Numbered from the stretch's first letter, positions 7,926-26,186 are shown. The stretch is DNA of 44,549 nt from Defluviitaleaceae bacterium (GCA_009780485.1 WQZZ01000003.1:1-44549), one strand, 5' to 3'. Made by a program: numbers and translations. The notes: generated by a model from the sequence alone, not told the origin.

Positions 7926-8651
7926 TTAGCCTTTCAAGCCTTTTTTGGCGTAGACCAAGGCGAAGATGATACCCAAAACTATCACATTACCCCACATTAT
8001 AGCGAAAGAATTCCATAGAGGTGCAGTTGAGTTGCCCGCCAAATAATCCGCAACCACATTAAGCTGTTGTGTGTAAAATGGGTGTAATATGCGTGCAACC
8101 GTATCATTAAATTGTGCCATCATAGGTCCAAAGCCCAAAACCATGGCAATAGGCATGGACAATGCGGTAGATGATTGCTGACCTTTGCTCAAAATTCCTA
8201 TGGTTGCACCCAAAACAATAGATGCAGCAACACCAGACATGATGCCCCCAGCAAAAATCCAAAAATCTGCACCCGAAAAGTCACTGATAAAGCCAAATAT
8301 TACCGATGTAACCATGCTGACTACAAGAACAACACCACCGACACCAAGTAGATAAGGTGCTGGTTTCATACCTGCCATACGAAGAAAACGCAGGCTTTTT
8401 TTCTCAATATCTTCAGCTATGATACTGGCAACCATAGGTATCAACGCCATGCCTGCAAAAGCCGTAGCCATCATTGTCACCATATTAGGCATACTTGCCA
8501 ACATTTCTTCGGTGAAATAATATTCGTCAAAGTTTAATATGGCTGTCATAGCAAATGCCACCAGTGGGAAAATCAAAAACTGGATAAGCGATTCTGGGTT
8601 TCTTAAAATACCCTTTGCTTGCTTCTTAAAAATGGCTTTAACATTATTCAT
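7926..8651 (-). CDS. ABC-2 type exporter permease
   Basis: 6 TM pattern, IAEDIEKKSLRFL, downstream of the ATPase. Confidence 0.85.
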   Translation of the reverse strand: MNNVKAIFKKQAKGILRNPESLIQFLIFPLVAFAMTAILNFDEYYFTEEMLASMPNMVTMMATAFAGMALIPMVASIIAEDIEKKSLRFLRMAGMKPAPYLLGVGGVVLVVSMVTSVIFGFISDFSGADFWIFAGGIMSGVAASIVLGATIGILSKGQQSSTALSMPIAMVLGFGPMMAQFNDTVARILHPFYTQQLNVVADYLAGNSTAPLWNSFAIMWGNVIVLGIIFALVYAKKGLKG

Positions 8652-9355
8652 TATTCTAGTCCCCCTCCTGTTAATTGCACAAATACGCTCTCTAGGTCAA
8701 AACTTTCTTTCTTGGCGTTATAACGCTCACAAATTTCTTTCGGGCATCCCTGCTCTACAATTCTGCCTTTATGAAGCATAACCACACGGTCGCAAAGATG
8801 GGTGGCTTCTTCCATGTTGTGGGTGGTTAAAAATATTGTAGAACCACCCTCCCGCAATTCTCTAATAAGTTTGTGGATACCTCGGGCGGTCATTGGGTCA
8901 AGTGCGCTGGTTGGCTCATCCAAAAACAAAATTTTTGGCTTATGTAACACCGCACGTGCCAGCACCAAACGCTGACGCATACCCTTAGAAAGCTGGTTTA
9001 CCACAGTTTTTGCAGCATCCCCAAGCCCAACCTTTTCCAAAGCTTCCAAAGTGCGTGAACGAGGTATTTTGTAAATATCTTCAAACACAATTAGATTATC
9101 AAGGCAGGACAGGCGGTCAAAAAGCCCATCATTTTCCAGCATTAAACCAATTTGATTACTACCAACTTCCACATGACATTCGCCACTGTCTGCACTTTCT
9201 TGTTTGGTTAAAATGTTGATAATTGTGGTTTTGCCAGCCCCAGAAGGCCCTAACATTCCAAAAATCTCTCCGTTGTGGGTTTCAAAGCTTACACCCTGTA
9301 ATACTTGGTTGCTTCCAAATGCTTTGCATACATTTTTCATGCTTACACTAATCAT
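8651..9355 (-). CDS. ABC-2 type exporter ATP-binding protein
   Basis: GPSGAGKT, LSKGMRQR, LFLDEPT. RBS AAGGAGGA before ATG 9355. Confidence 0.9.
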   Translation of the reverse strand: MISVSMKNVCKAFGSNQVLQGVSFETHNGEIFGMLGPSGAGKTTIINILTKQESADSGECHVEVGSNQIGLMLENDGLFDRLSCLDNLIVFEDIYKIPRSRTLEALEKVGLGDAAKTVVNQLSKGMRQRLVLARAVLHKPKILFLDEPTSALDPMTARGIHKLIRELREGGSTIFLTTHNMEEATHLCDRVVMLHKGRIVEQGCPKEICERYNAKKESFDLESVFVQLTGGGLE

Positions 9356-9356
9356 T

Positions 9357-10130
9357 TTACTCCTCCTTAATATTTGATAAATAAATTTCCATTGATTTTT
9401 CCATAAAGCTTGATGTTGCTGTCCAATTCTTATCATTGGCTTTAACGCCGTTCACTTGCTCGCTTAACTGGGTCATTAAATCCATGTCGCCCCCTGTAAG
9501 CTCCAGCATCATATCCCAAATCCTTTTCGCAAGGTTCTGCGACCTATCGTCATTAGGGTCAATATCCGCCTTAAATAATTCCATTGCCTCATCGCTAAGA
9601 CTGTTAAATACCCCCATCATTTCTTGGGCTTTTTCAATGCTTTTCAGGTGGTTGCCAATCTGCACTATAACGTCGTTGTCAATATGTTTAATCATCCAGT
9701 AATGTTTGTTTTTCATTTGCAAGTTTACAAGGATTGAGGAATACTTCTGAAAATCCACCGTATCCATCTGGGAAACTTCTTCCTTTAAGTTTTCTATGGC
9801 ATCTAGGCTTTCTGATAAAACCGCAATTTCGCCACGAATTTCTGCCGCCTGCTCTGTTAATGCGTTGATGACATCCTTCGGGGTGTCAAGCGAAGGTATT
9901 CGTTCTTTTATTTGACTAAGGGAAAAACCTAATTCCTTCAAAGTTAAAATGCGAATTAGTTTTACCATGTCTTTGTCTGTGTAAAGTCGGAAACCACCTT
10001 CGCTTTCCGCAGATGGGGTCAAAAGCCCCTCTTTGTCGTAGTATTGTAAGGTGCGTACTGTCACCCCTGCCGCTTTAGCCATCTCTCCAACTCTCATATA
10101 CCCCTCGGGTATGGCACGAAATTTATCCAT
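9357..10130 (-). CDS. MerR-family transcriptional regulator (TipA/Mta-like)
   Basis: MRVGEMAKAAGVTVRTLQYYDKEGLL...GFRLY HTH. Confidence 0.92.
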   Translation of the reverse strand: MDKFRAIPEGYMRVGEMAKAAGVTVRTLQYYDKEGLLTPSAESEGGFRLYTDKDMVKLIRILTLKELGFSLSQIKERIPSLDTPKDVINALTEQAAEIRGEIAVLSESLDAIENLKEEVSQMDTVDFQKYSSILVNLQMKNKHYWMIKHIDNDVIVQIGNHLKSIEKAQEMMGVFNSLSDEAMELFKADIDPNDDRSQNLAKRIWDMMLELTGGDMDLMTQLSEQVNGVKANDKNWTATSSFMEKSMEIYLSNIKEE

Positions 10131-10159
10131 TTGCCTCCTCCTCATCTCTTACTAAAATC

Positions 10160-10254: not shown

Positions 10255-10283
10255 TTGACAGACTGGGGTGGGTGTGATAAACT
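10255..10283 (+). promoter_or_regulatory. sigmaA promoter of the riboswitch-led operon
   Basis: TTGACA-17 bp-TAAACT with TG extension. Confidence 0.7.
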
Positions 10284-10299
10284 GTCGGTAAATAGTATA

Positions 10300-10393
10300 T
10301 TTTCTCCGACCCAAAAAACCTAAGGCGATGTGCTACGGTTTAAGGGCGTGGGTGCGTTTGGAAACGGGCGTGCCTTCCATTTCTGAAAAGGGG
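10300..10393 (+). ncRNA. Moco RNA motif riboswitch, P3-less (Tuco-associated) type
   Basis: CTCCGA..ACCTAAG..CTACGGT (P2), GGTGCGTTTG-GAAA-CGGGCGTGCC (P4, G-U rich, GNRA loop), TTCCATTTCTGAAAAGG (P5/P1). mobB lies downstream. Confidence 0.8.
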
Positions 10394-10422
10394 ATAAGCG
10401 TTTGTTTTTGCGTACCCCTTTT
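10386..10422 (+). terminator. Candidate riboswitch expression-platform hairpin
   Basis: AAAAGGGG...CCCCTTTT hairpin overlapping the 3' strand of P1. Confidence 0.45.
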
Positions 10423-10451
10423 GGTGACGCATTTTTTATTGGGGTGATTTT

Positions 10452-11009
10452 GTGATAAAAGCGAGAAAAAGCTTGTTAGCAGGTTTTACCATACTTGACT
10501 TGGTTGTTATCACGGTTCTTTCTGCCCTTGGTGTGGCGATTAGTGGTGTCGTTGGCACCTTGGTGCGTTTGGTGACGGGACCTTTGATGATACCTGGTGG
10601 CTCGGTGGCTGGTGGCATTTACATGTTGTTCCTTGTAATGGCTGTGGTGTTGACGGGTAAAAAGTCGGCGGCAATTTTGGTTGGATTATTACAATCTGTT
10701 ATGGTTCTTATCATGCCTTGGGCGGGTAACCATGGTATCGCAACTTTACTTACATATACTGCACCTGGGGTAGCGATTTTTCTACTTTTGCTGGTGATGC
10801 GACATAAAGGTTGTTGCAAATTCTGTTGTTTTTTCGCCTGTATGGTTGCGAATTTGACGGGTGTTGTCTTGGTTAGTGGTGTGGTAATGCAATTGCCGTT
10901 AGTTCCTATGTTGTTAGGGTTGACTGTAGGTGCGTTATCTGGTGGTTTGGGTGGTCTGCTTACTTGGTCGCTGGCTAAACAACTTAAAAAGTTAGAGGTG
11001 ATAAAATGA
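10452..11009 (+). CDS. ECF transporter S component
   Basis: 185 aa, about 6 TM, FTILDLVVITVLSALG N-terminus. Co-operonic with A, A' and T genes. Confidence 0.8.
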   Translation: MIKARKSLLAGFTILDLVVITVLSALGVAISGVVGTLVRLVTGPLMIPGGSVAGGIYMLFLVMAVVLTGKKSAAILVGLLQSVMVLIMPWAGNHGIATLLTYTAPGVAIFLLLLVMRHKGCCKFCCFFACMVANLTGVVLVSGVVMQLPLVPMLLGLTVGALSGGLGGLLTWSLAKQLKKLEVIK

Positions 11010-12070
11010 TAAAAAGGTTTATTTTACCTGTTGTGGTGCTGGTTGGGCTAGTCTTAGTTGGGTGTGGCGATACGGATAACGGGGAATACGTAGGTAGCCA
11101 GTACATAGGCAGCCGAGATTTTCCGTCCCCAGAGCAGGTGGGTGTTGTCTGGGATGGTGGCTCAACTATTCTTTTCCAATGGGAAGATACAGTTGAAAGT
11201 TACCTAGAGCAAACCTTTGAAGTGGATAATAGAATAGCTGTTTTACTTGCTTCTGGCGAAATTCATTATACAGAAAATTTTGCAGGGGCAAGACTTGTTG
11301 GTTATGAGGGTAACATAGACTTGGTGTTGGTTGACGGCACAACCTTCCTTAATATAGCTGGTGTTATCGCTGACCCGCCTGACATTGTAATAACACAGGC
11401 TTATAACGATGCCTTGGAGCTTTTACAAGAAGGGCATAGGGTAATGATTGTTGTGCTGGACGGATGGGGCTGGCATATGCGTAAATACCACGCTTTTCAT
11501 CAACCCTTTTTATTTCGCCAGCCAGCTCGAAAGGCACATACGGTTTTCCCACCATTTACACCCGTTGCTATGTCTAGTATTTTTACTGGACAAACCCCAG
11601 ATGTACATGGTGTCCATGACAGAGCAACCCGCACCATGTCAGCCCCAGACATTTTCACGGCTGCATACGATTTAGGTTTTTCGTCTACACGTGTGCAAGG
11701 GGGCGTTAATATTGTGCAAACCAGTGTGTTGTCGGCACTCATCCCAAATTTGGGTCATGTGTTTGACACTGACCAAGGAGTGTTTGATGCGGCAATTGCT
11801 CGCATAGACGACAGCGACTTAATGTTTATCCATTTTAATTCTATTGACGACATCTCCCATACCTATGGACCATATAGCCCCCAAGTGGCGGAAGCCTTGG
11901 CGTTCATAGACAGTTTGGTATGGGATTTGGCGGATGCTTGGGACGGCATGATGATAATTACCGCCGACCACGGTCAGCATTATTTGGGGCAAGAAGGGCG
12001 TTTGGGCGACCATTTATGGGTAAGCCATGAAGACATTTTTGTGCCATATCTCATAATTGATGCCAATTGA
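11006..12070 (+). CDS. Alkaline phosphatase superfamily (pyrophosphatase/phosphodiesterase-like) lipoprotein
   Basis: Lipobox LVGC. Metal and nucleophile motifs VVLDG, PPFTPVAMSSIFTG, IDDISH, TADHG, GDH. Confidence 0.8.
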   Translation: MIKRFILPVVVLVGLVLVGCGDTDNGEYVGSQYIGSRDFPSPEQVGVVWDGGSTILFQWEDTVESYLEQTFEVDNRIAVLLASGEIHYTENFAGARLVGYEGNIDLVLVDGTTFLNIAGVIADPPDIVITQAYNDALELLQEGHRVMIVVLDGWGWHMRKYHAFHQPFLFRQPARKAHTVFPPFTPVAMSSIFTGQTPDVHGVHDRATRTMSAPDIFTAAYDLGFSSTRVQGGVNIVQTSVLSALIPNLGHVFDTDQGVFDAAIARIDDSDLMFIHFNSIDDISHTYGPYSPQVAEALAFIDSLVWDLADAWDGMMIITADHGQHYLGQEGRLGDHLWVSHEDIFVPYLIIDAN

Positions 12071-12121
12071 CCTTGAGTGCAGATTTTGCGCCGTCACGTG
12101 ATGACGAATTAGGAGGCTTTT

Positions 12122-12628
12122 ATGTCAAAAAATACTAAAATAATAATCGGGGTTGTTGCCTTGCTTGTGCCTGTGGTTGTAATTCTTGCCGTGCTAAACT
12201 TCCGTGAAATGGAAGAACGTTTAGCGTACCACGTAGAAGGCAGTTTTCGGGTGATAATGGGCGACCAGTCCATGTCGGTTTCCATTGATGATATGATAGA
12301 CATGGGGCTTGTGGTTTTCGATAGTAGCCACCGCAGAGCAGAAGGGTTATTTACAGGGGTTTATCTGCTGGATATATTAGAATTTACTAGTTTGGATTAT
12401 TATAGTGCCAGTTCCCTACAATTTGTGTCCTTTGATGGTTTTCGTTCATCCATAACCATAGCAGAAGCCACCACCCTAGGCAACGCTTTAATTGTTTTTG
12501 GTGAGGATGGTACATCACTCGCAGACCGTGGTGGTGCATGGGAAAACGCCCCGTTTATGCTCGTTTTGCCAAATGATATGTTTCCGCAACGGTGGGCGAG
12601 ATATATAATTGAAATTATTTTGGAGTGA
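12122..12628 (+). CDS. Membrane-anchored protein with a molybdopterin-binding (sulfite oxidase/MsrP-like) domain
   Basis: N-terminal TM. FTGVYLLDIL, FVSFDGF, APFMLV, RWARYIIEI. Confidence 0.7.
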   Translation: MSKNTKIIIGVVALLVPVVVILAVLNFREMEERLAYHVEGSFRVIMGDQSMSVSIDDMIDMGLVVFDSSHRRAEGLFTGVYLLDILEFTSLDYYSASSLQFVSFDGFRSSITIAEATTLGNALIVFGEDGTSLADRGGAWENAPFMLVLPNDMFPQRWARYIIEIILE

Positions 12629-12633
12629 TTAGT

Positions 12634-13362
12634 ATGAAAAAACTTTTAATCTTTATGCTTTTCCTGCTTTTTGTGGTGGGGCTGACAGCTTGTGGTAACA
12701 GTGAAGACGAGCAAGAGGAGGTTGTTGCAACACTGGGCGAAATTGTACCCCATTATCCTCAACACCTAGGTTCTCCAATTGTGCCATTGGAACCAACACC
12801 GCATGAAACTGAACAACCTAGCACACAAGAAACACTTAACATATTAGAAGAACCCGAAAACGTGCAACCAAATATACCAGACAACCAAGAACCACATGAA
12901 GACGAACCCGACGAACCTGCAAATGAACCTGCAATTGTGCCAGAACCAGAACCTGCCGTCTACCATGATGCGGAAGTCGGATTATTTGTAAATGGACAAT
13001 TCTTAGGTAAAAGCAAGCTTGTTGCCATGGAAGTGGTAGAATTTACCGTGACTATACGTCCAGGAACTGACCGAGAGGATATTCGTCAATACCGTGGCGT
13101 TGCCCTTGCTGACATTCTTGCCTACTTTAACATTGACGAAGGCACATCACTAATATTCCACAGTTATGATGGATTTGCAGCGGGCATTACCATGGCAGAA
13201 GCCCTTGACCGCCAACAGGCCTTCATAGCCATCTGGCAAGATGGGCAATATTTTGCACATCGTGGTGATTATTGGGGGGTCGCCCCTTTCCAGCTAGTTA
13301 TGGCACAAGATATTTTCGCCCAGCGGTTTGCCCGTTATATCACGGAGATTGTTGTACAATGA
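12634..13362 (+). CDS. Lipoprotein with Pro/Glu linker and a molybdopterin-binding-like domain
   Basis: Lipobox LTAC. YRGVALADIL, FHSYDGF, APFQLV, RFARYITEI. Confidence 0.72.
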   Translation: MKKLLIFMLFLLFVVGLTACGNSEDEQEEVVATLGEIVPHYPQHLGSPIVPLEPTPHETEQPSTQETLNILEEPENVQPNIPDNQEPHEDEPDEPANEPAIVPEPEPAVYHDAEVGLFVNGQFLGKSKLVAMEVVEFTVTIRPGTDREDIRQYRGVALADILAYFNIDEGTSLIFHSYDGFAAGITMAEALDRQQAFIAIWQDGQYFAHRGDYWGVAPFQLVMAQDIFAQRFARYITEIVVQ

Positions 13363-14003
13363 CGGCGGTAGAGCTTCGCAACATAAGTGTTGATTATGGC
13401 AAATATCCCGTGGTTACGGACTTCTCCCTAACCGTGACGGCAGGGGAAGCTGTTCTAATAAAAGGGCTTTCGGGATGTGGCAAATCCACATTGTTACACG
13501 TGGTTTGCGGGATAATTCCTAGCATAATCGAAGCCAATGTGACAGGAGAAGCCTTGCTTTTTGGTGAAAATGTGACAAGTTTAGATACCGCCACCCGTGC
13601 AAAGAAAATCGGGATTGTATTTCAAAACCCAGAAACCCAGTTGTTTTGCGATAGCGTGGAAGATGAAATTGCCTTTGGGCTGGAAAACCTTTGTGTTCCA
13701 CGTAAAGAAATTGGCGAACGCATAACAGAAATGCTAAATTTAGTGCAGATGAGTGATTTTCGCCATACTTCACCAAAGGAGCTTAGTGGAGGACAAAAGC
13801 AAAGGGTTGTACTTGCGGCAGTGCTGGCATTAGACCCACAAATACTTTTGCTGGATGAAGCCCTGTCACAAATGGATGCAGAAGCTAAGAAGCTACTGTT
13901 GACCCATCTTAAAGCCTTGCGACAGCAGGGCAAAACCATGTTAATGGTTGACCATGATGATGTACTGGCAGAAATTGCCAGTTCCATTATACAACTATCT
14001 TAG
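13359..14003 (+). CDS. ECF transporter ATPase (A)
   Basis: [29 protein letters not shown] overlap with the upstream gene. Confidence 0.9.
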   Translation: MTAVELRNISVDYGKYPVVTDFSLTVTAGEAVLIKGLSGCGKSTLLHVVCGIIPSIIEANVTGEALLFGENVTSLDTATRAKKIGIVFQNPETQLFCDSVEDEIAFGLENLCVPRKEIGERITEMLNLVQMSDFRHTSPKELSGGQKQRVVLAAVLALDPQILLLDEALSQMDAEAKKLLLTHLKALRQQGKTMLMVDHDDVLAEIASSIIQLS

Positions 14004-14019
14004 AGGAGGAAAAAGGAAA

Positions 14020-16506
14020 ATGAAAAAAGTTAGAAATTTTGCAGCTTTACTACTCGCTTTCGTCATTGCAGTGCCAACAATGGTTTTTGGTTTTGAAAAC
14101 CGCACAGAAACGGACATTCGTCTGTTTATTGAAGGGGCAGAGGTGTCCACGGGTGAGCGAGGCAATGAACCTTTTAACGTGGATGGGCGTGTGTTTCTGC
14201 CAATACGTGCATTAACCACGGCTTTTGCACGTGAAGTCCACTGGGAGCCTACAAGCTCTAACCTACATTTTGGCACACGCTACAACGCCCTAAACCACTA
14301 CAATTTGGTGGTAACAATGGGTGGCTATAGCGAATTTACAGACCTTAATTTTATTGAAACCCTTAGCCCGCAAGCCTTTCAAGTGGATGACCGTGGCAAT
14401 ACCAGAAATTTTGAAGGCGTGCCGTTGTCAACTGTTTTAGATATTTTTACATTTGACATGTCCGATGCTTACGGATTTGCCTTTATTGCCGCTGATGGAA
14501 TGTCCACAATCGCAACCACCGAGGACGTAATGGAGCATGGTTGGCTTGTTATCGGTGAGGAGGGTGAACGCTTTACTAGTCGCTATGCTGGTGGACGTGG
14601 ACCATTTATGGTGGTTTTTGCCGAAGATGGTGTGCCTGGTCGCTGGGCTAGAATGCTTGTAGAAATTCAAGTTATTAACCAACCTGGGGAGTATATTTCT
14701 GAAAGACTAATCCAAGTCCTTGCTGACGGGGTGAATGTTGATTTTGCAGACGGTAATGGTAATTATGCAACCCCGTTTATGTTAGACGGTGTAATTTACC
14801 TGCCTGTTCGTGCATTGTCGGTTGCACTTGGCATGACGGTAAATTGGAATGCTAGTGAAAATGCAATTTATGTGGGTGCTACCCCGCAAACTTTCGATGT
14901 TGCTGAAGGCGGCTATTTGGTCGTGAACGCAGGCGGACACCGTATGGTTGTCACCATGGACGATATTCTAGAAATTGGTGTAGTAGACACTTATGCTGTT
15001 ATCCGTGGCGAACGCAGGGATTACAGTGGTGTTCCAATTATTTCAATCGTGGAATTTTTGGGGTTTGACGTGTCTTATGCAACTGGGCAGGTGACATTTG
15101 GCTCACGTGATGGGCATGGCACATCTGCGACCCCAGCGGAAGCTTTCGACCCGACCAACGGCTTTATCGTAATCGCTGAAAATGGTGAGCTTTTGGGGCA
15201 TTGGGAAGCTGGTGGGCGTGGACCTTTCATGGTAATTTTCGCCCAAGACGTTTTCGCCCAGCGTTTTATACGCTATTTGACCGATATTTCTGTCGAGGGT
15301 GTGCCTTCTCCCGCTGGTGGTGGTGTGGATGACCGCTGGAACAACCACCCATTAAGTATCGTAATTGGCGGTTTGTCCCTTAATCTTACCGCTAGCGTCA
15401 TCTATGCAATTGGTGCAAGTGACTTGGAGTGGAACAATCAGAACTTTGTAGCTGTGCCAATGGCTTCGATTATTGAGCATTTTAGTTTGGGTGAAGTTGC
15501 TGGTGGACGCATTGTTGCTGATAATGGTACGGAACATAACATAACTCCTGAAGACATTGAGAATATGTATATTGCAATATACCAAGCTGGACATGAGCCA
15601 GCAACCGACAATCACTTCACCACCGTGTTTGTCGAAGACACCAACAACCAACGCCGTATGCGTGGGCTTGCCACCATATACATTGACGCAGAAGTACAAG
15701 CCGGCTACCCACTAAATATTGAGATTGCAGGACGCACCTATGGCGTTACCGTAGAATTGTTGCAAGAATTAGGTGCAGAAGCCGTCACAGCACGTGACCG
15801 CAACTGGACAGGCACACCCATGACCGCTATAATCGAGCATTTCGACATCAACCTCGACGGCATTGCTGAGGGTGTAGTAATATCTGGTGGAACTGGCTTT
15901 ACCCAACCTTTCACAATTGAAGAACTGCTAGACGAAACCAATTTCTTCCTTGCATTTGAAGAAGACGGCGTGGCTCTTGAGATACAAGAAGGCACAAACA
16001 GCAACATTATGAGCCTTTTCGCCCATGACGAGCGTGCAACCCGTGGCGTGCGTGGCGTTGTAACCGTTCGCTTAATGGCGGAAGATGCTGGTGCTGATGT
16101 GTCAACCACCGTCGAAGGGCTTGAAGATGGTGAGTTTGTAATTCTTCGTGGTGAAGACACTTGGACAATAACCATGGATGACCTTGTAGAGATTGGCTTG
16201 GAAGATTTTGTAACCAACATTCCTACAGGTGGCGGTTCCACCAGATATTTCACTGGCGTGCGTTTATCCGCCATCCTTGAGAGTCAAAACATCAGACTTG
16301 ATGGGGCAACTAATTTCATAACCACATCTTGGGAAAGCACATTTTCTGCTGGATGGAACATCGCTACTGACCTTGATTATATTTTCATAGCGGTTGCAGA
16401 GGACGGCGAGGTGCTAAGTCCCCACAACGGTCCATTCTTTGGCGTGGTGCAACACCGTGGCTCAAACTTTAACCCAAGAAATTTACAAAGTATCAGAATT
16501 AACTAG
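14020..16506 (+). CDS. Secreted surface protein: two copper-amine-oxidase-N (stalk)-like domains + five molybdopterin-binding-like repeats
   Basis: Signal peptide. DGRVFLPIRAL and DGVIYLPVRAL. Repeats FEGVPL, YSGVPI, FVAVPM, WTGTPM, FTGVRL; the best-conserved repeats carry GPF and R-x-x-R motifs. Confidence 0.75.
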   Translation: MKKVRNFAALLLAFVIAVPTMVFGFENRTETDIRLFIEGAEVSTGERGNEPFNVDGRVFLPIRALTTAFAREVHWEPTSSNLHFGTRYNALNHYNLVVTMGGYSEFTDLNFIETLSPQAFQVDDRGNTRNFEGVPLSTVLDIFTFDMSDAYGFAFIAADGMSTIATTEDVMEHGWLVIGEEGERFTSRYAGGRGPFMVVFAEDGVPGRWARMLVEIQVINQPGEYISERLIQVLADGVNVDFADGNGNYATPFMLDGVIYLPVRALSVALGMTVNWNASENAIYVGATPQTFDVAEGGYLVVNAGGHRMVVTMDDILEIGVVDTYAVIRGERRDYSGVPIISIVEFLGFDVSYATGQVTFGSRDGHGTSATPAEAFDPTNGFIVIAENGELLGHWEAGGRGPFMVIFAQDVFAQRFIRYLTDISVEGVPSPAGGGVDDRWNNHPLSIVIGGLSLNLTASVIYAIGASDLEWNNQNFVAVPMASIIEHFSLGEVAGGRIVADNGTEHNITPEDIENMYIAIYQAGHEPATDNHFTTVFVEDTNNQRRMRGLATIYIDAEVQAGYPLNIEIAGRTYGVTVELLQELGAEAVTARDRNWTGTPMTAIIEHFDINLDGIAEGVVISGGTGFTQPFTIEELLDETNFFLAFEEDGVALEIQEGTNSNIMSLFAHDERATRGVRGVVTVRLMAEDAGADVSTTVEGLEDGEFVILRGEDTWTITMDDLVEIGLEDFVTNIPTGGGSTRYFTGVRLSAILESQNIRLDGATNFITTSWESTFSAGWNIATDLDYIFIAVAEDGEVLSPHNGPFFGVVQHRGSNFNPRNLQSIRIN

Positions 16507-16516
16507 CCCCCAAATG

Positions 16517-16569
16517 GTAGTGGCGGGCATTGTCCGCCCTAATCCTGTCGGCACTAATCTCAGAGGTTG
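16517..16569 (+). repeat. Truncated, degenerate REP doublet
   Basis: GTAGTGGCGGGCATTGTCCGCCC followed by GGCACTAATCTCA, as in the full element. Confidence 0.7.
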
Positions 16570-16587
16570 GCTACTTAGGAAAGACAT

Positions 16588-17253
16588 ATGAGCGAATTTA
16601 TTGTAACAATCAAAAATTTGAACTTCAAATACAAAGACCGCTACCGACAAAGTAGCTTTGAACTGATTGTTGATGACTTTTTGACATGTGGTTGTACAGC
16701 CATCATGGGCGAAAACGGTAGTGGAAAAACCACCCTCGGAAAGCTGGTTGCAGGCATACTGCGACCAGCTTTTGGGTGCGTTTTTTACAATGACACAGAT
16801 ATTGCCGGCTTATCTCTAGCCCAAATTGGGCAACAAGTTGGCTATTTGTTCCAAGAGCCTAGCAGGCAGATTTTCGCTCCTAAGCCTTTGGAGGAGATTG
16901 CCATGCCACTAGAATTGCGTGGAATTCCCAAAAAGGAAGCCCACGAAAAAGCTATGGAAATGCTAGAAAAATTTGAGCTAAGCCATATTATAGACAGTGT
17001 AACATTTACCCTAAGCCGTGGGGAAAAACAACGACTGGCAATCGCCTCCGCTATGGTGATGCAACCAAAATATTTTGTGCTGGACGAGCCTACCACAGGA
17101 CTTGACAAAACCAGACGACAAATCCTAGCTGACACCTTGAAAAAATTGCAAGAGGACGGCATGGGTATTCTGTTAATAAGTCACGACATGGATTTTGTGG
17201 AAATGATGGGGGCTACCATACGACAGATGAAGGGTGGTCGGTTCGTTGAATAA
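16588..17253 (+). CDS. ECF transporter ATPase (A')
   Basis: GENGSGKT, FQEPSRQ, LSRGEKQR, LDEPT. Confidence 0.88.
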   Translation: MSEFIVTIKNLNFKYKDRYRQSSFELIVDDFLTCGCTAIMGENGSGKTTLGKLVAGILRPAFGCVFYNDTDIAGLSLAQIGQQVGYLFQEPSRQIFAPKPLEEIAMPLELRGIPKKEAHEKAMEMLEKFELSHIIDSVTFTLSRGEKQRLAIASAMVMQPKYFVLDEPTTGLDKTRRQILADTLKKLQEDGMGILLISHDMDFVEMMGATIRQMKGGRFVE

Positions 17254-18022
17254 CAAAAAACCCGACCCAAGGGTAATTTTTCTGTTGGTGCTGACTTTTT
17301 CCACTCTGGGTCTGCTAATTCGTGAAGATGTGGTGGCGATGGCAGGACTTCTCGTCCTAATCTTGATTTTCTCTGCAATGCTAGGCGTACAACTTCGTAG
17401 AATTTTCGGACGCATCAAACGACTTTTGCAAATAATGATACTTGTAACTCTTATGCGAAGCTTCTTCGCCCCTGCTGGCATTACACTTTTTGCTATTGCC
17501 GAAGTGCCAATCCTTACCACGGGGGGTATTGCTACGGGGCTTTTGGTGGCAATGCGTCTAATTTTGTTTATCATTGGGGCGGCGATGCTGACTGTGTACC
17601 CCGCCCGTGCCTTGATACAAGCCATGGTGCAAATGAAAATACCTTATGAAATGGCGTATATGGTTAGTATTGGATTGCGTTTTGTCCCGCAGTTTGCACA
17701 GGAACTACAAGACAGTCTAATTGCTTTACAGCTACGTGGGGTGGAAATTAAAAAACTGAAATTACGTAAAAGGTTGGGGTTGTACAGCTATTTGCTTCTG
17801 CCCACCCTTGTTTCTAGCCTGCAACAAGCCAAAGAATTAGCTATGTCTATGGAAATGCGGGGTTTTCGTGCTTTACCAAAGCGAACAAGTTTTTTCACCC
17901 TGACCATTGAAGCCAAGGATTACGTTATGGTGTTTAGCGTTTTAGCGATGGCAATCGCCATCGGCTTCACGATTTTCAACCACGACTTTTTTGAAGCATT
18001 AATGAATACTATCACTCTTTGA
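17234..18022 (+). CDS. ECF transporter T component
   Basis: DPR N-terminus, LRFVP, ALQLRG and MEMRG coupling motifs. Start uncertain. Confidence 0.88.
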   Translation: MVGSLNNKKPDPRVIFLLVLTFSTLGLLIREDVVAMAGLLVLILIFSAMLGVQLRRIFGRIKRLLQIMILVTLMRSFFAPAGITLFAIAEVPILTTGGIATGLLVAMRLILFIIGAAMLTVYPARALIQAMVQMKIPYEMAYMVSIGLRFVPQFAQELQDSLIALQLRGVEIKKLKLRKRLGLYSYLLLPTLVSSLQQAKELAMSMEMRGFRALPKRTSFFTLTIEAKDYVMVFSVLAMAIAIGFTIFNHDFFEALMNTITL

Positions 18023-18055
18023 CACTCATATTTTTTTGAATGATAAAATGGAGGT

Positions 18056-18664
18056 ATGTTAAAAATGATTGAAAAAAATCTTTTTGATGTAAAGTTGACG
18101 CTTGAACTCCCAAATTACTCCCTTTACGAGTTGGGATATATTTTAGTTGACCTAAACCAACTCTTTGTGTTTTGTGATTTGTTGGAAGAAGGGTATGTTG
18201 GTCTTGCTGTAGATAAATTTCACAATCAATATTTGTCCAGACGCTCAAAGTTGCTACAAGAGAAGGGTTCTAGATATGAAATAACAAGCATATCTAACGG
18301 AAGCATCATTATGCAGATTACAGGCTTAGGTTCTCTTGCTGTTATTGTTTTACGCTTGATTCTGGATTGTGTGAAAGAGTCTAATAAACTAAGAGGGGAA
18401 ATTATTAAATTTAATATTGAAGTTGATGAGGAAAAATACCATGAGTTGAAGCGCATTATTGATGAAGTTAAGGAATACGAAGCTGAGTTCAACATGGAAA
18501 TCCTCATAAGTATTCTTGTGTCGAAGGGCTTTTTGATTAGGGCGTATGACCACGACTTGTACAAAATAGAAGGGATATTCGAAAGATACGCAAAACGCAT
18601 TGAATCTGTAATGCATATTCCTAGGTACAAAAAGCGGTCGCATACCTCACAAAGAAGGGGGTAA
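18056..18664 (+). CDS. Hypothetical protein, AT-rich
   Basis: 202-aa ORF filling the gap between the T gene and mobB. No motif recognised. Confidence 0.6.
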   Translation: MLKMIEKNLFDVKLTLELPNYSLYELGYILVDLNQLFVFCDLLEEGYVGLAVDKFHNQYLSRRSKLLQEKGSRYEITSISNGSIIMQITGLGSLAVIVLRLILDCVKESNKLRGEIIKFNIEVDEEKYHELKRIIDEVKEYEAEFNMEILISILVSKGFLIRAYDHDLYKIEGIFERYAKRIESVMHIPRYKKRSHTSQRRG

Positions 18665-18668
18665 ACGC

Positions 18669-19463
18669 ATGAAAGTTTTAAGTATTTGTGGTATTTCGGG
18701 CAGTGGTAAGACAACAACAATTGAAGTAATTATTGCGGAGTTAGTTCGCCGTGGTTATCGGGTGGGGTCTGTGAAGGATATACATAACGAACAATTTGCC
18801 ATAGACCCAAGAGAGGACAGCAACACCAACCGCCACAAGCGGGCAGGTGCAACATTGGTTACAGCAAGGGGTTTTTACGAAACCGACATCTTATACCCTA
18901 GCCAGTTACCTATGGATAAGGTTCTGGACATTTATGAACGTGAAGGCTATGATTGGGTGGTTTTGGAAGGCGTGGACTGCATCAAAGTGCCAACCATAGT
19001 CACCGCCTATGGAACAACAGATTTGGAGCAAAAATGGTCTGACATGGCTTTTGCTCTGTCGGGTCGTTTGTCGATGGAGATGTCGGAATATAATGGCAAA
19101 CCCGCTATTGATGCAACTACAAACCCCCAGCAATTGGTGGATTTGATAGAGCTGAAAGTTTATGACCGTCTGCCGAATTTTCCAGATGAATGTTGTATGG
19201 TTTGTGGTTACAGTTGCAACGGATTGGCATCAGCCATAATCGCTGGCAAGGCACGTCGTGCGGATTGCGTTGCCGACAAGGGTATTGAACTACTGGTAAA
19301 TGGACGCAAAATTAAAATGGTGCCATTTGTGCAGGAGGTTTTGAGAAATGCTTTGGTTGGGGTGGTAAGTACACTTGATGGCTACGAAAAGGGGTGCGAT
19401 ATTGAAATTAAACTCACAGACCATTTATTTCAACAGCAAAAGAAATCAAGTCCGACTGATTGA
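18669..19463 (+). CDS. mobB: Molybdopterin-guanine dinucleotide biosynthesis protein B with C-terminal Fe-S-like domain
   Basis: GISGSGKTT, GYRVGSVK, VLEG. C-terminal CxxCGYSC...C. Confidence 0.85.
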   Translation: MKVLSICGISGSGKTTTIEVIIAELVRRGYRVGSVKDIHNEQFAIDPREDSNTNRHKRAGATLVTARGFYETDILYPSQLPMDKVLDIYEREGYDWVVLEGVDCIKVPTIVTAYGTTDLEQKWSDMAFALSGRLSMEMSEYNGKPAIDATTNPQQLVDLIELKVYDRLPNFPDECCMVCGYSCNGLASAIIAGKARRADCVADKGIELLVNGRKIKMVPFVQEVLRNALVGVVSTLDGYEKGCDIEIKLTDHLFQQQKKSSPTD

Positions 19464-20013
19464 TGGGCGGGTGGAGAAAGTCCACGCAACATCCGAAAAA
19501 GCTGACTTTGAAGCCAGTAGATTGACCCAGTTGTACAAGGCTGGACTTGATGTGCCAAAGGTAATTGATGTTGTTGAAAATGTGGTTATTATGGAGTATA
19601 TAAACGCCAAACCTTTACCTGATTTGATTGATGAATGGGAGCAAAACCCCGATGTTATTTCCCAGGAAAAGGCAGCGAAGGGCTTGGTTGAATGGCTGGA
19701 AGCCTTTTATAAAGCCGTTGACACAGGCGAAAGTCGAGGGGATATAAACGGCAGAAACTTTCTATTTGATGGGGAGAAAATATGGGGTGTAGACTTTGAG
19801 GAAGTCGCTCATGGCACGCCTTTGGAGGACATAGGGCAACTTCTTGCCTTCATCACCACCTATCACCCCGCCCACACCGACCTGAAAATCCGATTATCTC
19901 GCATAATTGCACAGTGGGCGGCGGAGATTTTCCGCATCGACCCTACCGAAATTAAGCGACAACAGGAATTGGCTGTTGAATTTTTACAAAGCCGTAGAAA
20001 GGGCATAAAATGA
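19402..20013 (+). CDS. Protein-kinase-like (APH/RIO/Kdo-type) phosphotransferase
   Basis: VPKV, MEYI, RGDINGRN, VDFE, EDIG motifs. Start uncertain (TTG after AAAGGGGTG). Confidence 0.7.
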   Translation: MKLNSQTIYFNSKRNQVRLIDGRVEKVHATSEKADFEASRLTQLYKAGLDVPKVIDVVENVVIMEYINAKPLPDLIDEWEQNPDVISQEKAAKGLVEWLEAFYKAVDTGESRGDINGRNFLFDGEKIWGVDFEEVAHGTPLEDIGQLLAFITTYHPAHTDLKIRLSRIIAQWAAEIFRIDPTEIKRQQELAVEFLQSRRKGIK

Positions 20014-20711
20014 AGGTTTTAGTTTTTGATTTGGGTGGCACGTTGATGGAGTATGAAGGTATGCCTAATTCTTGGACGGGTTATTATCAAGTAGGTTTTG
20101 AAGCTATAAACGACGATTTCGGATTAGGCTTGTCACAAGTCGACATACAAAAATCCTGCGAGATTTTGACGAGCAAGAACGCACGTGTGGTATATCGTGA
20201 AATTGAATATACACCCAATGAAATTTTTGCAAAAGTGACCGCTCATTGGCACAAAAAGATGGATTTGGACGACATAATAAATAGCTTTTTCAAAGGGCAT
20301 GAGCTGAAGCCCGTCATTTATAAGGATACCATTGACTATTTGTGCCACTTGAGAAGGAAAGGCATTAAAATTGCCGCACTGACTGACCTGCCCACCGCCA
20401 TGCCTGATGAAATTTTCAAAAAAGACATACCAGAAATTCTGTCTCATCTTGATTTGTATGTGTCGTCTTTAACCTGTGGTTTTCGCAAACCCAACAAAAA
20501 CGGGCTTTTGTATATATCTGAATATTTCGGTGTTGACGTTTGTGACCTTATTTTCATTGGTGATGAGGAAAAGGATATTAAAGCAGCGAAAAATGCCAGT
20601 TGTGTGTCAGTGTTGATTGATAGGAAAAATGACAAAAAAGATTATGGTCAAGATTTTACAGTAACTTCCTTGTCTGAATTAGAACAAATTTTGGAAGCTG
20701 GTGGTGAGTAA
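20010..20711 (+). CDS. HAD-superfamily hydrolase
   Basis: FDLGGTL, RKP, IGDEEKDI motifs. Confidence 0.88.
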   Translation: MKVLVFDLGGTLMEYEGMPNSWTGYYQVGFEAINDDFGLGLSQVDIQKSCEILTSKNARVVYREIEYTPNEIFAKVTAHWHKKMDLDDIINSFFKGHELKPVIYKDTIDYLCHLRRKGIKIAALTDLPTAMPDEIFKKDIPEILSHLDLYVSSLTCGFRKPNKNGLLYISEYFGVDVCDLIFIGDEEKDIKAAKNASCVSVLIDRKNDKKDYGQDFTVTSLSELEQILEAGGE

Positions 20712-22930: not shown

Positions 22931-23749
22931 CTACCAAACACCATACAACCCTGCCACAAAATTCAGCACAAAAATCCCGCCTGTTAGTGTGGCCAGGCTG
23001 ACAAACGCACCGAGGTCACGCAACGCCATTTTCGTTTGCTTCATGCGGGTTCTTCCAATGTCACCACGGTAGCAACGAGATTCCATGGCAAGTGCCAATT
23101 CTTCGGCACGTCGAAAAGCGGAAATGAACAGGGGTACAAGTAGAGGTACAAGACTGCGTGCTTTTTTGACAATACCACCCGTGTCAAAATCCGCACCACG
23201 TGCCATTTGTGCCTTCATAATTTTGTCCATCTCCTCAATTAAGGTGGGGATGAAACGGAGGGCTATTGTCATCATCATGGCAATTTCGTGGGCTGGCACA
23301 CCAATTTTTTTCAGCGGCTTTAAGCCAAATTCAATAGCGTCGGTCAGCTGGATTGGGGTGGTTGTCAGCGTCAAAATGGACGAGCCTATGATTAGCATAA
23401 TAAGACGCAAGCCCATGCGACCAGCCGCCAGCAAGCCCTCCTGTGTAACCCTGATAAAACCAAGCTCGAACACCAAGGTTTCCCCTGGTGTGAAAAACAC
23501 GTTGAGGATTGCCGTAAACACAATGATAAACAGGATTGCCCGTAATCCACGGATTAAAAACCGTGGCGGCACTTTGGAAACCTTGATAATGGTTGCTAAA
23601 TACAACGCCGCCAAAGCATATCCTAAAAAGTTGTTGATGAAAAATATCACCACAATAAAAATCATGGTGCAAAGCAATTTCATCCTTGCATCCAGCCTGT
23701 GGATTATGGAATCCGCTGGGTAATATTGACCTATGGTGACTTTTAGCAT
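22931..23749 (-). CDS. ecfT: ECF transporter transmembrane component
   Basis: IGQYYP..SIIHRLDAR, ALRFIPT, AQMARG, AMESRCY. Confidence 0.95.
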   Translation of the reverse strand: MLKVTIGQYYPADSIIHRLDARMKLLCTMIFIVVIFFINNFLGYALAALYLATIIKVSKVPPRFLIRGLRAILFIIVFTAILNVFFTPGETLVFELGFIRVTQEGLLAAGRMGLRLIMLIIGSSILTLTTTPIQLTDAIEFGLKPLKKIGVPAHEIAMMMTIALRFIPTLIEEMDKIMKAQMARGADFDTGGIVKKARSLVPLLVPLFISAFRRAEELALAMESRCYRGDIGRTRMKQTKMALRDLGAFVSLATLTGGIFVLNFVAGLYGVW

Positions 23750-23761
23750 TTTTTCACCTCT

Positions 23762-24478
23762 CTAATGTCTAGAAATCGACAACAATTTTATCAAAAGTAT
23801 GATAAACCCAAAGAAGGCAACAATAGAATTAAACAAAAGCGGTATATTCGCAATAATGTCTAGAGTTAATTCAACTTCAGAATAAATAATCAGACTGATA
23901 ACGGTACTGGAAATCGACGATACTACAAACAACCAAAAAGGTATGTCATTACCTAAGCAAAGCCATGGGTATGCACGCCTATAAGAACTATGGTGTCGAA
24001 ATATCTCATGCTTGTACTTTTTCGGCTTATTTTGAGATACCAAAACCCTTCGCACTAGGTTCAAGTAATGTTTGGAAAACGCTCTTAATTTAGTTGTGAC
24101 ATCTTTTGTCTTTGGGTTGTCCATCTCCAATTTTGACGTCAATTCCATTGTAGCAACTTGCAATTTGCCATCCCCAAGTAATTCTTCTAAAATAGAATCG
24201 CTTGCAACTTTATTTAAGAGCTGATTACATATGCGTTTGATTTCGCTCCATTCTTGTTTCCTAAAATGTAACTCTTGCTTGTTACTATATCCCTTAAAAA
24301 GGTATGGCTCAATAAATCTTTTTAAGGGTGCGTGGATTTCATGGTAAATTTTGTTGGCTTGTTCAGGGGTAAACATCAACCTTTTTTCGGACAAGTTACT
24401 GATTATTTTCCAAAGTAATGCCCATATTGCTGAAATAGTAGCCACAATCACTGAAACCGTTAACCAGAAATCACTCAT
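23762..24478 (-). CDS. Hypothetical membrane protein inserted in the ecf operon
   Basis: N-terminal TM and two C-terminal TMs. AT-rich. Overlaps the ecfA2 stop. Confidence 0.65.
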   Translation of the reverse strand: MSDFWLTVSVIVATISAIWALLWKIISNLSEKRLMFTPEQANKIYHEIHAPLKRFIEPYLFKGYSNKQELHFRKQEWSEIKRICNQLLNKVASDSILEELLGDGKLQVATMELTSKLEMDNPKTKDVTTKLRAFSKHYLNLVRRVLVSQNKPKKYKHEIFRHHSSYRRAYPWLCLGNDIPFWLFVVSSISSTVISLIIYSEVELTLDIIANIPLLFNSIVAFFGFIILLIKLLSISRH

Positions 24479-25323
24479 CTGCAGATGCCCTTCGATATAG
24501 CGGTTACGGCTTCATCAACGGTGAAAATGTTGGGGGGTAAGGTGAAACCTTTAGACTGCAAATCCCGCATGATGTAAGCGGTTTGGGTGCTGGATAGACC
24601 AATGGCTTCCAGCTCATCAAATTTGGAGAAAATTTCAGCAGGTGTGCCTGTCAACACGATTTTACCACCATTTATCACCAAAATACGATTCACAAGGCGG
24701 GCGATGTCCTCCATGCTGTGGGACACCAAAATAACGGTAATACCAAGGGTTTCGTGCATTCGCTTTACTTGCCCCAAAATCTCATCACGCCCACGAGGGT
24801 CAAGTCCTGCAGCGGGTTCGTCCAATACCAAAATTTCGGGACGCATGGCAAGCACCCCCGCAATTGCCACACGGCGTTTTTGTCCGCCAGACAGCTCAAA
24901 GGGTGACTTTTCGTGAAGTTCAGGGGCGATGCCCACCATTTCCAACGAAGACTTAACACGCTCATCGACTTCCTCGTTTGACAGACCTGCGTTTTTCGGA
25001 CCAAAAGCCACGTCTTTGTATACCGTCATGTCAAAAAGCTGATGTTCTGGATATTGAAAAACCAAGCCGACCTTGGTGCGGATGGCTTTAAGTCTTGATT
25101 TATCGGCATTTATGTCCTCGCCGTCAATTATAATATTGCCCGACTGGGGCTTGATAAGGGCGTTAAGGTGCTGAACCAGCGTGGACTTGCCCGAGCCTGT
25201 ATGCCCGATAAGTCCCACAAAATCACCCTTTTCAATGGTCAAATTTATCTCATCCAACGCCTTTTTCTCGAAGGCAGAACCTTTGCCGTAGTAGTGGCAT
25301 AAATTTTTAATTTCTATTGACAT
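24475..25323 (-). CDS. ecfA2: ECF ATPase A2
   Basis: [29 protein letters not shown]. Confidence 0.95.
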
Positions 25324-26173
25324 TCACTAACGCCTCCACCAATTGGTCGCCTGTTACAATACCCCTAGGCAAATCAACCCCACCAAGGCGTAATTTATGG
25401 GCAATTTCCGCCGCCTGTGGCACATCCAGCCCAATTTCTTTTAACTCGTCAATTTTGGTAAAGATTTCATTTGGAATACCTTCCATAACGACTTTCCCGT
25501 CGTTCATTACGATTATCCTGTCAGCCTGTGCCGCTTCATCCATGTAGTGGGTGATTAGGATTATTGTGATACCTTCGGCGTTTAGACGACGTGCAACCGC
25601 CATAACCTCTCGTCGTCCAATGGGGTCAAGCATGGCGGTGGATTCGTCCATAACAATAATATCAGGACGCATCGCCAAAATGCCAGCAATCGCAACCCGC
25701 TGCTTTTGCCCCCCCGACAAATGATGAGGAGGATTGCCCGCAAATGCCGTCATTCCTACGGCTTCCAATGCTTCATCTACCCGCTGGCGAATCTCGGCGG
25801 GCGGAATACCTAAATTCTCGGGTCCGAAAGCCACGTCTTCCTCAACAATTGTGGCTATTATCTGGTTGTCGGGATTTTGAAACACCATGCCCACAGATTG
25901 GCGTATTTCCCAAGTTTTTTCTTCCTCGGTCGTGGAAATGCCTTTCACCCACACCGTACCTTCTTTAGGTAAAAGTAAACCATTGATATGCTTAGCTAAA
26001 GTTGACTTACCAGAGCCGTTATGACCCAAAACCGCCACAAACTCCCCCTTGCTAATGGAGATGGACACGCCATCCAAAGCCACATTAGGGGGAGTTTCGT
26101 CAGTTTTGTCTTCCGTGTCAGATTGCACTGCATATTCAAACACAATTTCATCAGTTTTAACAACAATTTCCAT
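25307..26173 (-). CDS. ecfA1: ECF ATPase A1
   Basis: [32 protein letters not shown]. Confidence 0.95.
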
Positions 26174-26186
26174 AAGAACTCCTATT

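Follow-up and report, generated by a model that had tools for sequence, protein, structure and literature searches.

A 44,549-nucleotide stretch of DNA from a Defluviitaleaceae bacterium (GCA_009780485.1 WQZZ01000003.1:1-44549), analysed at its full length and referred to here as the window, carries at positions 10255-20711 an operon that begins with a riboswitch for the molybdenum or tungsten cofactor (Moco or Tuco) and encodes the S, A, A' and T components of a transporter of the energy-coupling factor (ECF) type, a lipoprotein of the alkaline phosphatase (AP) superfamily, three exported proteins with domains resembling the pterin binder PruR, a MobB protein and a small kinase. From sequence, genomic context and distribution, we consider it probable that this module imports metal-loaded molybdopterin (MPT), in the form of Tuco or Moco, and acts as a cofactor salvage system. 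The best-supported reading is that such import would be supplementary in most carriers and the only source in some. The earlier note on this DNA had already proposed the capture and import of Moco/Tuco or molybdopterin, and that proposal gains support from the likeness of the exported domains to PruR, from a phyletic pattern in which 13 of 50 module-bearing genomes lack cofactor synthesis genes, and from the positional replacement of those genes by the module. We regard as evenly balanced the broader proposition that anaerobic Bacillota possess an uptake and salvage pathway for the finished W/Mo pterin cofactor, one that includes a new "molybdopterin kinase" and would allow auxotrophs to be fed by their neighbours.

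We found 112 relatives of the S component at E <= 0.001 among the scored candidates, and a 26-member S profile led to 448 tblastn-confirmed loci in species-representative genomes, of which the best 80 were analysed. Almost all of these 80 loci come from anaerobic Bacillota. Genes were counted by BLAST of open reading frames (ORFs) against the window proteins in the 54 loci where 8 kb or more follows S, and A and T were each present in 51, the PruR-like (Oxidored_molyb-like, or OM) domain in 49, A' in 48, MobB in 38, the kinase (Kin) in 36, AP in 31 and the HAD hydrolase that ends the window operon in none. The core module is S, the OM domain, A, A', T, MobB and Kin, often with AP. The HAD gene, a 202-aa ORF, an HI0933-like flavoprotein (one locus) and FMN_red were also considered as module parts and set aside as not conserved. 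Two records assigned to other groups, "Actinomycetes" (L066) and "Bacteroidaceae" (L067), carry S, with the other subunits of L066 on the opposite strand, and these may represent transfer outside Bacillota or mis-binning.

To follow cofactor synthesis across carriers, we searched 50 of the 80 module-bearing genomes for its genes. MoaC was found in 37 genomes, MoaA in the same 37, and MoeA_N in 34. The same 13 genomes lacked MoaA, MoaC, MoeA_N and TupA, with TupA homologs in 28 of the 37 others, and a strong ModA/WtpA-type match was present in only one of the 13 compared to 23 of the 37. MoaE (PF02391) was also found in none of the 13, a result that carries little weight since this is a weak marker overall, matching 10 of the 50 genomes at 28-35 bits. 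All 13 pathway-less genomes keep W/Mo enzymes, with AFOR_N in eight and PF00384 in nine, and several of the PF00384 enzymes are ~890-900 aa long with an in-frame TGA. The combination of pterin-dependent enzymes with missing moaA and moaC, which the earlier note had suggested looking for in hosts, was observed in these 13 genomes, but it does not describe the window host or 37 of the 50 carriers. The module is at least as complete in the pathway-less genomes as in the others: in the 12 pathway-less loci with room, we found OM in 12, MobB in 11, Kin in 11, AP in nine and the riboswitch in eight, compared to 30, 25, 24, 18 and 23, respectively, in 34 pathway-bearing loci. Three genomes, G004 (L019), G014 (L032) and G029 (L055), have MoaA and MoaC with no MoeA_N match, and G014 and G029 also lack TupA; these may represent a partial-pathway state, or divergence or assembly gaps.

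The genes that the pathway-less genomes retain help to place the imported species. In the E. coli pathway, MobA acts on metal-loaded MPT. MobA is present in eight of the 13 genomes, each time at most 2 kb from a PF00384 gene, and the four genomes with only aldehyde oxidoreductase (AOR) enzymes lack it. Since MobA acts on metal-loaded MPT, the retained step follows metal insertion, and its substrate cannot be reached by the encoded genes. Since MobA is kept beside a PF00384 enzyme, the imported species would be placed after MoeA, at or before the substrate of MobA.

Four observations argue that most of these absences are real. Random loss of loci appears rare, since only 3 of the 37 MoaA-positive genomes miss MoeA_N. 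The pathway-less label needs about eight changes on the S tree, at least four of them forced by well-supported branches. Genome G157, which is 96% complete in 10 contigs, has no MoaA, MoaC or MoeA_N, and its sole Moco RNA lies 1.3 kb upstream of S, with an AOR gene 8 kb away. Finally, the flanks of the FDH (formate dehydrogenase) cassettes described next continue into other genes.

On four contigs (G024, G020, G017 and G028, holding loci L046, L039, L036 and L052), a single strand carries S-(AP)-OM-A-A'-T-MobB-Kin followed by NuoE/NuoF-like genes, FdhA, MobA and FdhD, and the FdhA of each carries a dinucleotide-binding domain. The cassette is followed by 3 to 8 kb of other genes in G024, G017 and G028, and by one ORF and then the contig end in G020. 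In G043, MobA and an FdhA-like gene directly adjoin the module, whose other flank carries an AOR and an FdhD-like ORF. In the pathway-bearing genome G010, FdhA-MobA-FdhD and a carbonic anhydrase gene are followed by tupA-tupB-tupC-moeA-moeA-moaA-moaC, such that the module occupies the place held elsewhere by tungstate uptake and cofactor synthesis. This positional replacement is the strongest single argument that the module supplies cofactor. Adjacency to AOR was rejected as a general rule, being seen in only 2 of the 80 loci plus G157 and G043.

A class-wide sample also ties the module to tungsten enzymes. Among 399 scored genomes of the host's class with at least 90% completeness, S was matched in 23 (19 strong, two weak and one partial match, plus the host genome, G000), MoaA in 88 and AFOR_N in 52. 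S was present in 20 of the 52 AFOR-positive genomes compared to 3 of the 347 AFOR-negative genomes, and we conclude from this that the module goes with W-type enzymes. Five genomes are MoaA-negative and AFOR-positive; two of these carry the module (G157 and G255), and G255 has MoaC.

The third line of evidence comes from the exported proteins, in all three of which the earlier note had seen MsrP/sulfite-oxidase-like fold motifs; a profile hidden Markov model (HMM) of the domain found one, one and four copies, at least six in total. The first protein is a 168-aa membrane-anchored protein (12122-12628, + strand, as are all features of the operon) with one PruR-like domain (12236-12622; domain HMM, 107 bits), and the second is a 245-aa lipoprotein (12625-13362) whose domain (13012-13359; 87.9 bits) follows an acidic, proline-rich linker. 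The third, identified by Pfam and the domain HMM, is an exported wall-associated protein of 828 aa (14020-16506) with two Cu_amine_oxidN1 stalk domains and four confident PruR-like domains (14305-14673, 14914-15297, 15787-16071 and 16126-16449; i-E 1.5e-23, 2.8e-29, 1.3e-13 and 3.3e-14, respectively). When read as an 852-aa ORF (13948-16506), this same gene gave an Oxidored_molyb-like Pfam match of 47.6 bits plus Cu_amine_oxidN1, and the corresponding scores for 12122-12628 and 12625-13362 were 16.7 and 20.5 bits, both under the cut-off. Read by eye, the 852-aa protein has a Sec-type signal, the 168-aa protein an N-terminal membrane anchor and the 245-aa protein the lipobox LTAC, and no twin-arginine motif was seen in the exported proteins of the operon.

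We built an alignment and HMM of the OM (PruR-like, SUOX-like) domain from 49 anchored single-domain homologs of ~170 aa. The family has an invariant Asp in an "xDG[YF]" motif (D105, 49/49), followed by Y/F107 (49/49), and no Cys is conserved in the 49 sequences, with a maximum of 21 sequences in any column, that column being C-terminal. The best PDB matches of this profile were all PruR (7KOM, 2.6e-6; 7KOS/7KOU, 7.2e-6), followed by SorA (1e-5), and searches with single proteins gave E of 0.3-0.9 to sulfite oxidases or no match. PruR is described as a small SUOX-fold protein that is secreted and lacks the Mo-ligand Cys; neopterin-/monapterin-type pterins sit between its Y104 and W160, and N102 contributes a hydrogen bond (PMC11194511). 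The "alNdY" of PruR aligns with the "alDGY" of the OM family, which sets N102 over D105 and Y104 over Y/F107; W160 falls outside the aligned stretch, and the OM family has a conserved W158 (39/49). With a periplasmic protein whose pterin binding is proven by crystallography as the closest match of the profile, the earlier prediction of surface pterin-binding domains is strengthened, and on present evidence the exported OM domains would act like pterin binders. A full SUOX molybdoenzyme (sulfite oxidase or MsrP/YedY) was set aside, since there is no conserved Cys and the Pfam matches span only the C-terminal part of PF00174. Since a DcpA-type GGDEF/EAL partner is absent from the window operon and the mapped loci, we do not take the OM domains to be members of the PruR signalling system.

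What the pathway-less genomes could do with an incomplete pterin is the point on which the best-surviving alternative falters. This alternative, which we consider unlikely, is that the module imports a related pterin: metal-free or dephospho-molybdopterin, cyclic pyranopterin monophosphate (cPMP), or another pterin that spares synthesis. Without MoeA_N and TupA (13/13) and without a strong ModA/WtpA match (12/13), the 13 pathway-less genomes could not metallate such a compound, and cPMP is further disfavoured because MoaE was not found in them. Its appeal lies in PruR-type sites, which accommodate small pterins and have been called truncated Moco sites (PMC11194511), in the pairing of an ecto-phosphoesterase with a cytoplasmic kinase, which fits uptake of a dephosphorylated precursor, and in the fact that most carriers (37/50) have MoeA and could insert the metal themselves. 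Import of metal-loaded MPT remains the reading that we prefer, and the control of the operon bears on it next.

The Moco-motif RNA that the earlier note had placed at the head of the operon was recovered by Infernal with Rfam at 10292-10409 (+). The match to RF01055, at 66.1 bits against a gathering score of 36 (E 7.8e-14, model positions 1-135, not truncated), is the sole Rfam family at gathering score within the window. The aptamer is of the P3-less Moco/Tuco type: the cmscan alignment has deletions in place of the P3 hairpin columns, and P3 is also missing in seven of eight aligned examples. P3-less Moco RNAs are reported to correlate with Tuco genes, and riboswitches of this kind commonly control oxyanion transporters (PMC2408646), a point in favour of the oxyanion importer weighed below. 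Upstream of the aptamer lies a sigma-70-like promoter (10255-10283; TTGACA, 17 nt, TAAACT, extended TG), which is a consensus match only, with 10 of 12 positions matched in a consensus scan. Downstream, the expression platform (10386-10451) offers alternative pairings in two RNA folds. The P1 3' strand AAAAGGGG (10386-10393), when free, is able to pair with CCCCUUUU (10415-10422), and without the P1 3' strand the ACCCC of CCCCUUUU pairs with the Shine-Dalgarno GGGGU (10441-10445); the z-scores of these folds, -1.3 and -0.6, are not significant. We infer from these mutually exclusive pairings a predicted OFF-switch logic. A terminator hairpin at ~10410-10437, read by eye, was dropped because it is absent from the terminator scan and is not the minimum-energy fold.

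The riboswitch is a recurrent companion of the module. An Rfam scan of nine loci found a same-strand Moco RNA upstream in six, and a covariance model made from eight Moco RNA examples and run over the 80 loci found 54 Moco RNAs. Since all 54 lie on the S strand, the linkage between riboswitch and S is beyond chance. A Moco RNA stands upstream of S in 45 of the 80 loci, several of them in tandem, and among the 35 loci without one, 13 have less than 2.3 kb of upstream sequence. No other Rfam family was found upstream of S in the 17 loci scanned, which include eight riboswitch-negative loci. The company that the earlier note expected of this S clade, Moco riboswitches and mobB rather than riboswitches for other ligands, is therefore what we observed, with MobB in the 38 of 54 loci counted above. 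Two or three tandem Moco RNAs precede the module in six loci (L043, L033, L049, L065, L080 and L026), and these recall the triple arrangement of S. wolfei, whose triple-riboswitch operon was described with "other genes of unknown function" (Regulski 2008, PMC2408646); the genes of that operon may be this module.

In many relatives, the first genes after the riboswitch encode OM lipoproteins (~380-400 aa), proteins with FMN_bind, FMN_bind-OM fusions, ApbE and a NapH-like polyferredoxin that carries FMN_bind. The earlier note had not seen these flavin-related genes. By BLAST, FMN_bind was found in 19 of the 80 loci, NapH-like genes in 12 and ApbE in six, with none near the window operon. Such extracytosolic flavin genes stand under the same riboswitch at L017:8323-9971, L018:7995-9965, L028:2137-6777 and L049:8739-9818, and the genes of those relatives make up an extracytosolic flavin electron chain that is linked with pterin-binding domains. 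One possibility is that the flavin genes keep a captured pterin reduced. The combination of a flavin chain with pterin domains goes unmentioned in the main text of two flavinylation surveys (Meheust 2021, PMC8238504; mSystems 2024, PMC11334425), in which the strings "molyb", "ECF" and "tungst" are also absent, and the supplements of these surveys may list such clusters.

These genes also bring up a transporter working in the other direction, in which the ECF complex would export or traffic a pterin (or flavin) cofactor to load Sec-exported PruR-like or FMN_bind redox proteins, as EetB/FmnA does for FAD. We think this improbable, even though exporters of the ECF type are known and are found alongside ApbE systems (PMC9973259). 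The S family of EetB is PF07456 and not PF09819 (PMC9973259), the pathway-less genomes would have nothing to export, and an OFF-switch-like platform would give expression when cofactor is scarce. The ApbE genes, FMN_bind-OM fusions and NapH-like polyferredoxins of relatives do fit such a loading role, but most loci lack the flavin genes, as does the window operon. The Sec or lipoprotein signals of all OM proteins (by eye), with which they could not carry a cofactor out via Tat, also speak for it, and the missing metal-ligand Cys of the OM domains speaks against it.

The transporter for which we propose import of metal-loaded MPT is complete in the window, with the S, A, A' and T components that the earlier note had named all matched by Pfam on one strand. 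The S component (10452-11009) is a 185-aa integral-membrane protein of a PF09819 clade (42.4 bits against a cut-off of 25.2) with no NCBIfam match, and its relatives are named generically or after YkoE/HMP (hydroxymethylpyrimidine). ATPase A (13359-14003; PF00005, 96.6 bits) and ATPase A' (16588-17253; PF00005, 92.2 bits) have as their top NCBIfam matches ECF_ATPase_1 (180 bits) and ECF_ATPase_2 (154 bits), respectively, each under the equivalog cut-off. The T component (17234-18022) belongs to the CbiQ family (PF02361, 75.4 bits). The window S component carries a CCxxCC motif that is found in 36 of 80 homologs and missing from 44, and its use as a metal or dithiolene site was dropped for this reason.

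Between S and the first OM protein, the operon encodes the exported AP-superfamily lipoprotein (11006-12070), which resembles nucleotide pyrophosphatases/phosphodiesterases (NPP). Its assignment in the earlier note agrees with a PF01663 match of 58.9 bits and with a lipobox, LVGC, read by eye. D152, G153, T194, D281, H285, D321 and H322 are kept in 38-44 of 44 homologs, and we take D152, T194, D281, H285, D321 and H322 to be the metal-ligand Asp/His set and the Thr nucleophile. Proteins of the phosphatase fold are known binders of tungstate and molybdate. This, the Cys-rich motif of S and the habits of the riboswitch are what speak for an ECF transporter that takes up tungstate, molybdate or their thio forms and uses the exported domains as metal receptors, which is very improbable given that genomes without MoaA, MoaC and MoeA would have no use for an oxyanion, yet keep the module intact, that the exported domains resemble a pterin binder and not ModA/TupA or molbindin, that 44 of the 80 homologs lack CCxxCC, and that the host already has a TupA-like system.

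The remaining genes of the operon include those of MobB and Kin, which are predicted to act in the cytoplasm. The 202-aa ORF (18056-18664) has neither a Pfam nor an NCBIfam match and is without a counterpart in any of the 80 loci. Next comes MobB, a P-loop NTPase with a Cys-rich FeS domain fused to it (18669-19463; PF03205, 61.1 bits against a cut-off of 26.6), which NCBIfam matches as "MobB/FeS domain-containing" (112 bits, under cut-off). The GxxGxGKT residues of MobB are kept in 44-47 of 47 homologs, and the P-loop together with C175, C176, C179, C183 and C200 in 40-47 of 47. The small APH/RIO-like kinase (19375-20013; PF01163, 40 bits; PF01636, 31 bits) probably has its true start near 19402; its Atlas neighbours are APH/RIO clusters, and the stored Atlas record begins at residue 10. 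Its K35, E46, D123, N128 and D140-F-E142 are kept in 45-47 of 47 homologs, a "DxxxxN...DFE" pattern that we presume to be that of small-molecule kinases. The HAD hydrolase (20010-20711; PF00702, 53 bits) closes the run. All three of the mobB, kinase-like and HAD genes listed in the earlier note are present, but the last of them lies outside the conserved module (0/54 related loci).

From these parts, we infer what is transported, most likely metal-loaded MPT, in which direction it moves and what AP, Kin and MobB do, and we suggest the following sequence of events. When cellular cofactor is low, the P3-less riboswitch would let the operon be expressed, and the anchored and wall-attached PruR-like domains would capture pterin cofactor released by other cells. 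The AP/NPP-like ecto-phosphodiesterase may trim dinucleotide or phosphorylated forms to the transported form, which the dedicated ECF transporter (S, T, A and A') would import. Inside the cell, MobB-FeS and the small kinase would receive the cofactor, and the kinase may re-phosphorylate it. Where MobA is present, FDH-type enzymes would receive the guanine dinucleotide form that it makes, and AOR-type enzymes would use the imported cofactor directly.

The host of the window makes the cofactor itself. Its genome (G000) is a 2.04-Mb assembly of 169 contigs, 85.7% complete, in which the window is contig C3. Contig C95 carries a second P3-less Moco RNA (67.9 bits) followed by moaC, moaA, two MoCF/MOSC-like ORFs and tupA/tupB-like genes (C95:1-4021), including a TupA-like lipoprotein (PF12849, 117 bits) and a TupB-like ORF. 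Two moeA genes lie on C145. On C107, a PF00384 formate-dehydrogenase-like enzyme (1322-3895) with one in-frame TGA is followed by mobA and fdhD; the TGA is most simply a selenocysteine codon, as in many related FDH matches. No AFOR_N was found in the host genome, and PF13531 and PF12849 matches occur on C95 and C76 only. The earlier note was right that the window itself holds no ModA/TupA-type protein and no moaA, moaC or moeA, and the genome-wide searches place such genes on C95, C145 and C76. Auxotrophy of the host is excluded by moaC, moaA and the tupA/tupB-like genes of C95 and by the two moeA genes of C145. Since the host has synthesis genes and a TupA-like system, neither a lack of synthesis nor a lack of tungstate uptake explains the operon here. 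We also observe that a single organism puts synthesis with tungstate uptake and the ECF module under the same type of switch.

Several points weigh against cofactor import as we propose it. The case is built on sequence, context and distribution, and the direction of transport is not readable from sequence. The window host and 37 of the 50 carriers make the cofactor themselves, and in the class-wide sample 20 of the 23 S carriers have MoaA and only G157 is a clean auxotroph. The absences in the 13 pathway-less genomes call for caution, as about 9 of the 37 pathway-bearing genomes have all markers on one contig and a lost contig could mimic auxotrophy. L036 and L032 have almost the same S protein, and since moaA and moaC are present in the genome of L032, the absence in L036 is probably an assembly gap. 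The expectation that all pathway-less AFOR-positive genomes carry the module failed, since G268, G109 and G192 (100% complete) are AFOR_N-positive with no MoaA, MoaC, MoeA_N, Moco RNA, S or OM domain; other cofactor routes or orphan enzymes must therefore exist. No riboswitch is seen in 22 of about 67 loci with enough upstream DNA, and the ApbE, FMN_bind and NapH-like genes of some loci are without a clear role in the model. The kinase would be superfluous if NPP-type cleavage leaves the MPT phosphate in place. Lastly, PruR binds small non-Moco pterins in its truncated site (PMC11194511).

Elsewhere in the window, a second ECF-type gene set lies on the - strand (22931-28366), with a CbiQ-type T component (22931-23749, 177 bits), two ABC ATPases (24475-26284) and a 238-aa ORF without a Pfam match that is possibly its S component; after these come a protein with Cu_amine_oxidN1 (26658-27338) and a 342-aa ORF that has no match. 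The Rfam scan of the window found no riboswitch for this set. The genes for a MerR/TipAS-type regulator, an ABC ATPase and an ABC-2 permease (7926-10145, - strand), which run divergently from the promoter of the riboswitch, probably form an unrelated efflux unit. A fusion of a NUDIX hydrolase and a class I methyltransferase (29622-30833, - strand) adjoins asparagine synthase.

If import of the finished cofactor is true, the module would be the first Moco/Tuco transporter of a prokaryote and would give the first evidence that the cofactor is cross-fed in communities, where it would be a traded public good like B12. Predictions from genomes of which organisms can use W/Mo enzymes, such as formate dehydrogenase and aldehyde oxidoreductases in guts, digesters and sediments, would then have to reckon with auxotrophs. 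A substrate class and a receptor-assisted mode would be added to the ECF transporters, PruR-like domains would have a second biological role beyond Proteobacteria, and the kinase and phosphodiesterase activities on molybdopterin would be new to enzymology. Since there are carriers in culture, namely Alkaliphilus peptidifermentans DSM 18978 and Sporotomaculum syntrophicum FB, the question of import is directly testable.

To our knowledge, Moco is generally treated as a cofactor that each cell must make. In the words of one abstract, it cannot be taken up in most organisms (PMC9026282). Our literature searches found no published bacterial transporter for Moco, molybdopterin or the tungsten cofactor and no link of these to ECF, as the earlier note had supposed when it knew of no characterised one; the supplement of Regulski 2008 (Table 1 and Fig. 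S4 gene lists) may list such clusters. The available text of PMC13328260 makes no mention of salvage, riboswitch, MobB or ECF, and its supplement may likewise list such clusters. Dietary uptake of Moco is described in Caenorhabditis elegans, where finished cofactor passes between organisms, but this is an animal system.

Several known systems share parts of the design. Dedicated ECF modules include the biotin, Ni/Co and cobalamin systems. Like the window operon, ECF importers of vitamins and cofactors have S, T, A and A' encoded together behind a riboswitch for the cofactor concerned, but by definition they work without exported binding domains, whereas the window operon encodes three proteins with putative domains of this kind and adds an ecto-phosphodiesterase, MobB, a kinase and an S clade of unassigned substrate. 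TupABC, ModABC and WtpABC resemble the module in supplying W/Mo enzymes and in being frequent targets of the same riboswitch; however, they are type I ABC systems with a periplasmic oxyanion-binding protein, useless without MoeA, and the window operon encodes no such binding protein. Salvage of NAD by Haemophilus uses an ecto-nucleotidase/phosphatase, the PnuC importer and the NadR kinase. It has the same logic of trimming, import and re-phosphorylation with unrelated proteins and an unrelated cofactor, and it serves as an analogy for the AP and Kin roles only.

The exported domains and the flavin-associated relatives have their own counterparts. PruR of Agrobacterium tumefaciens and other Proteobacteria (7KOS, 7KOU, 7KOM and 7RKB) is small, secreted and Cys-less like the OM domains, but it is a signalling partner of the DcpA cyclase/phosphodiesterase, whereas the OM domains belong to a transport operon under a Moco/Tuco riboswitch, are membrane- or wall-anchored, reach four or five copies per protein and occur in Bacillota. 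The EetB/FmnA flavin exporter described in Listeria links ECF machinery to extracytosolic cofactor proteins, as in relatives of the window operon, but differs in its S family, PF07456 compared to PF09819, and in exporting where we propose import (PMC9973259). Set beside these systems, the module would be an ECF importer that handles a new class of substrate and has its own exported receptor domains and processing enzymes, and the pathway concept would be new if confirmed.

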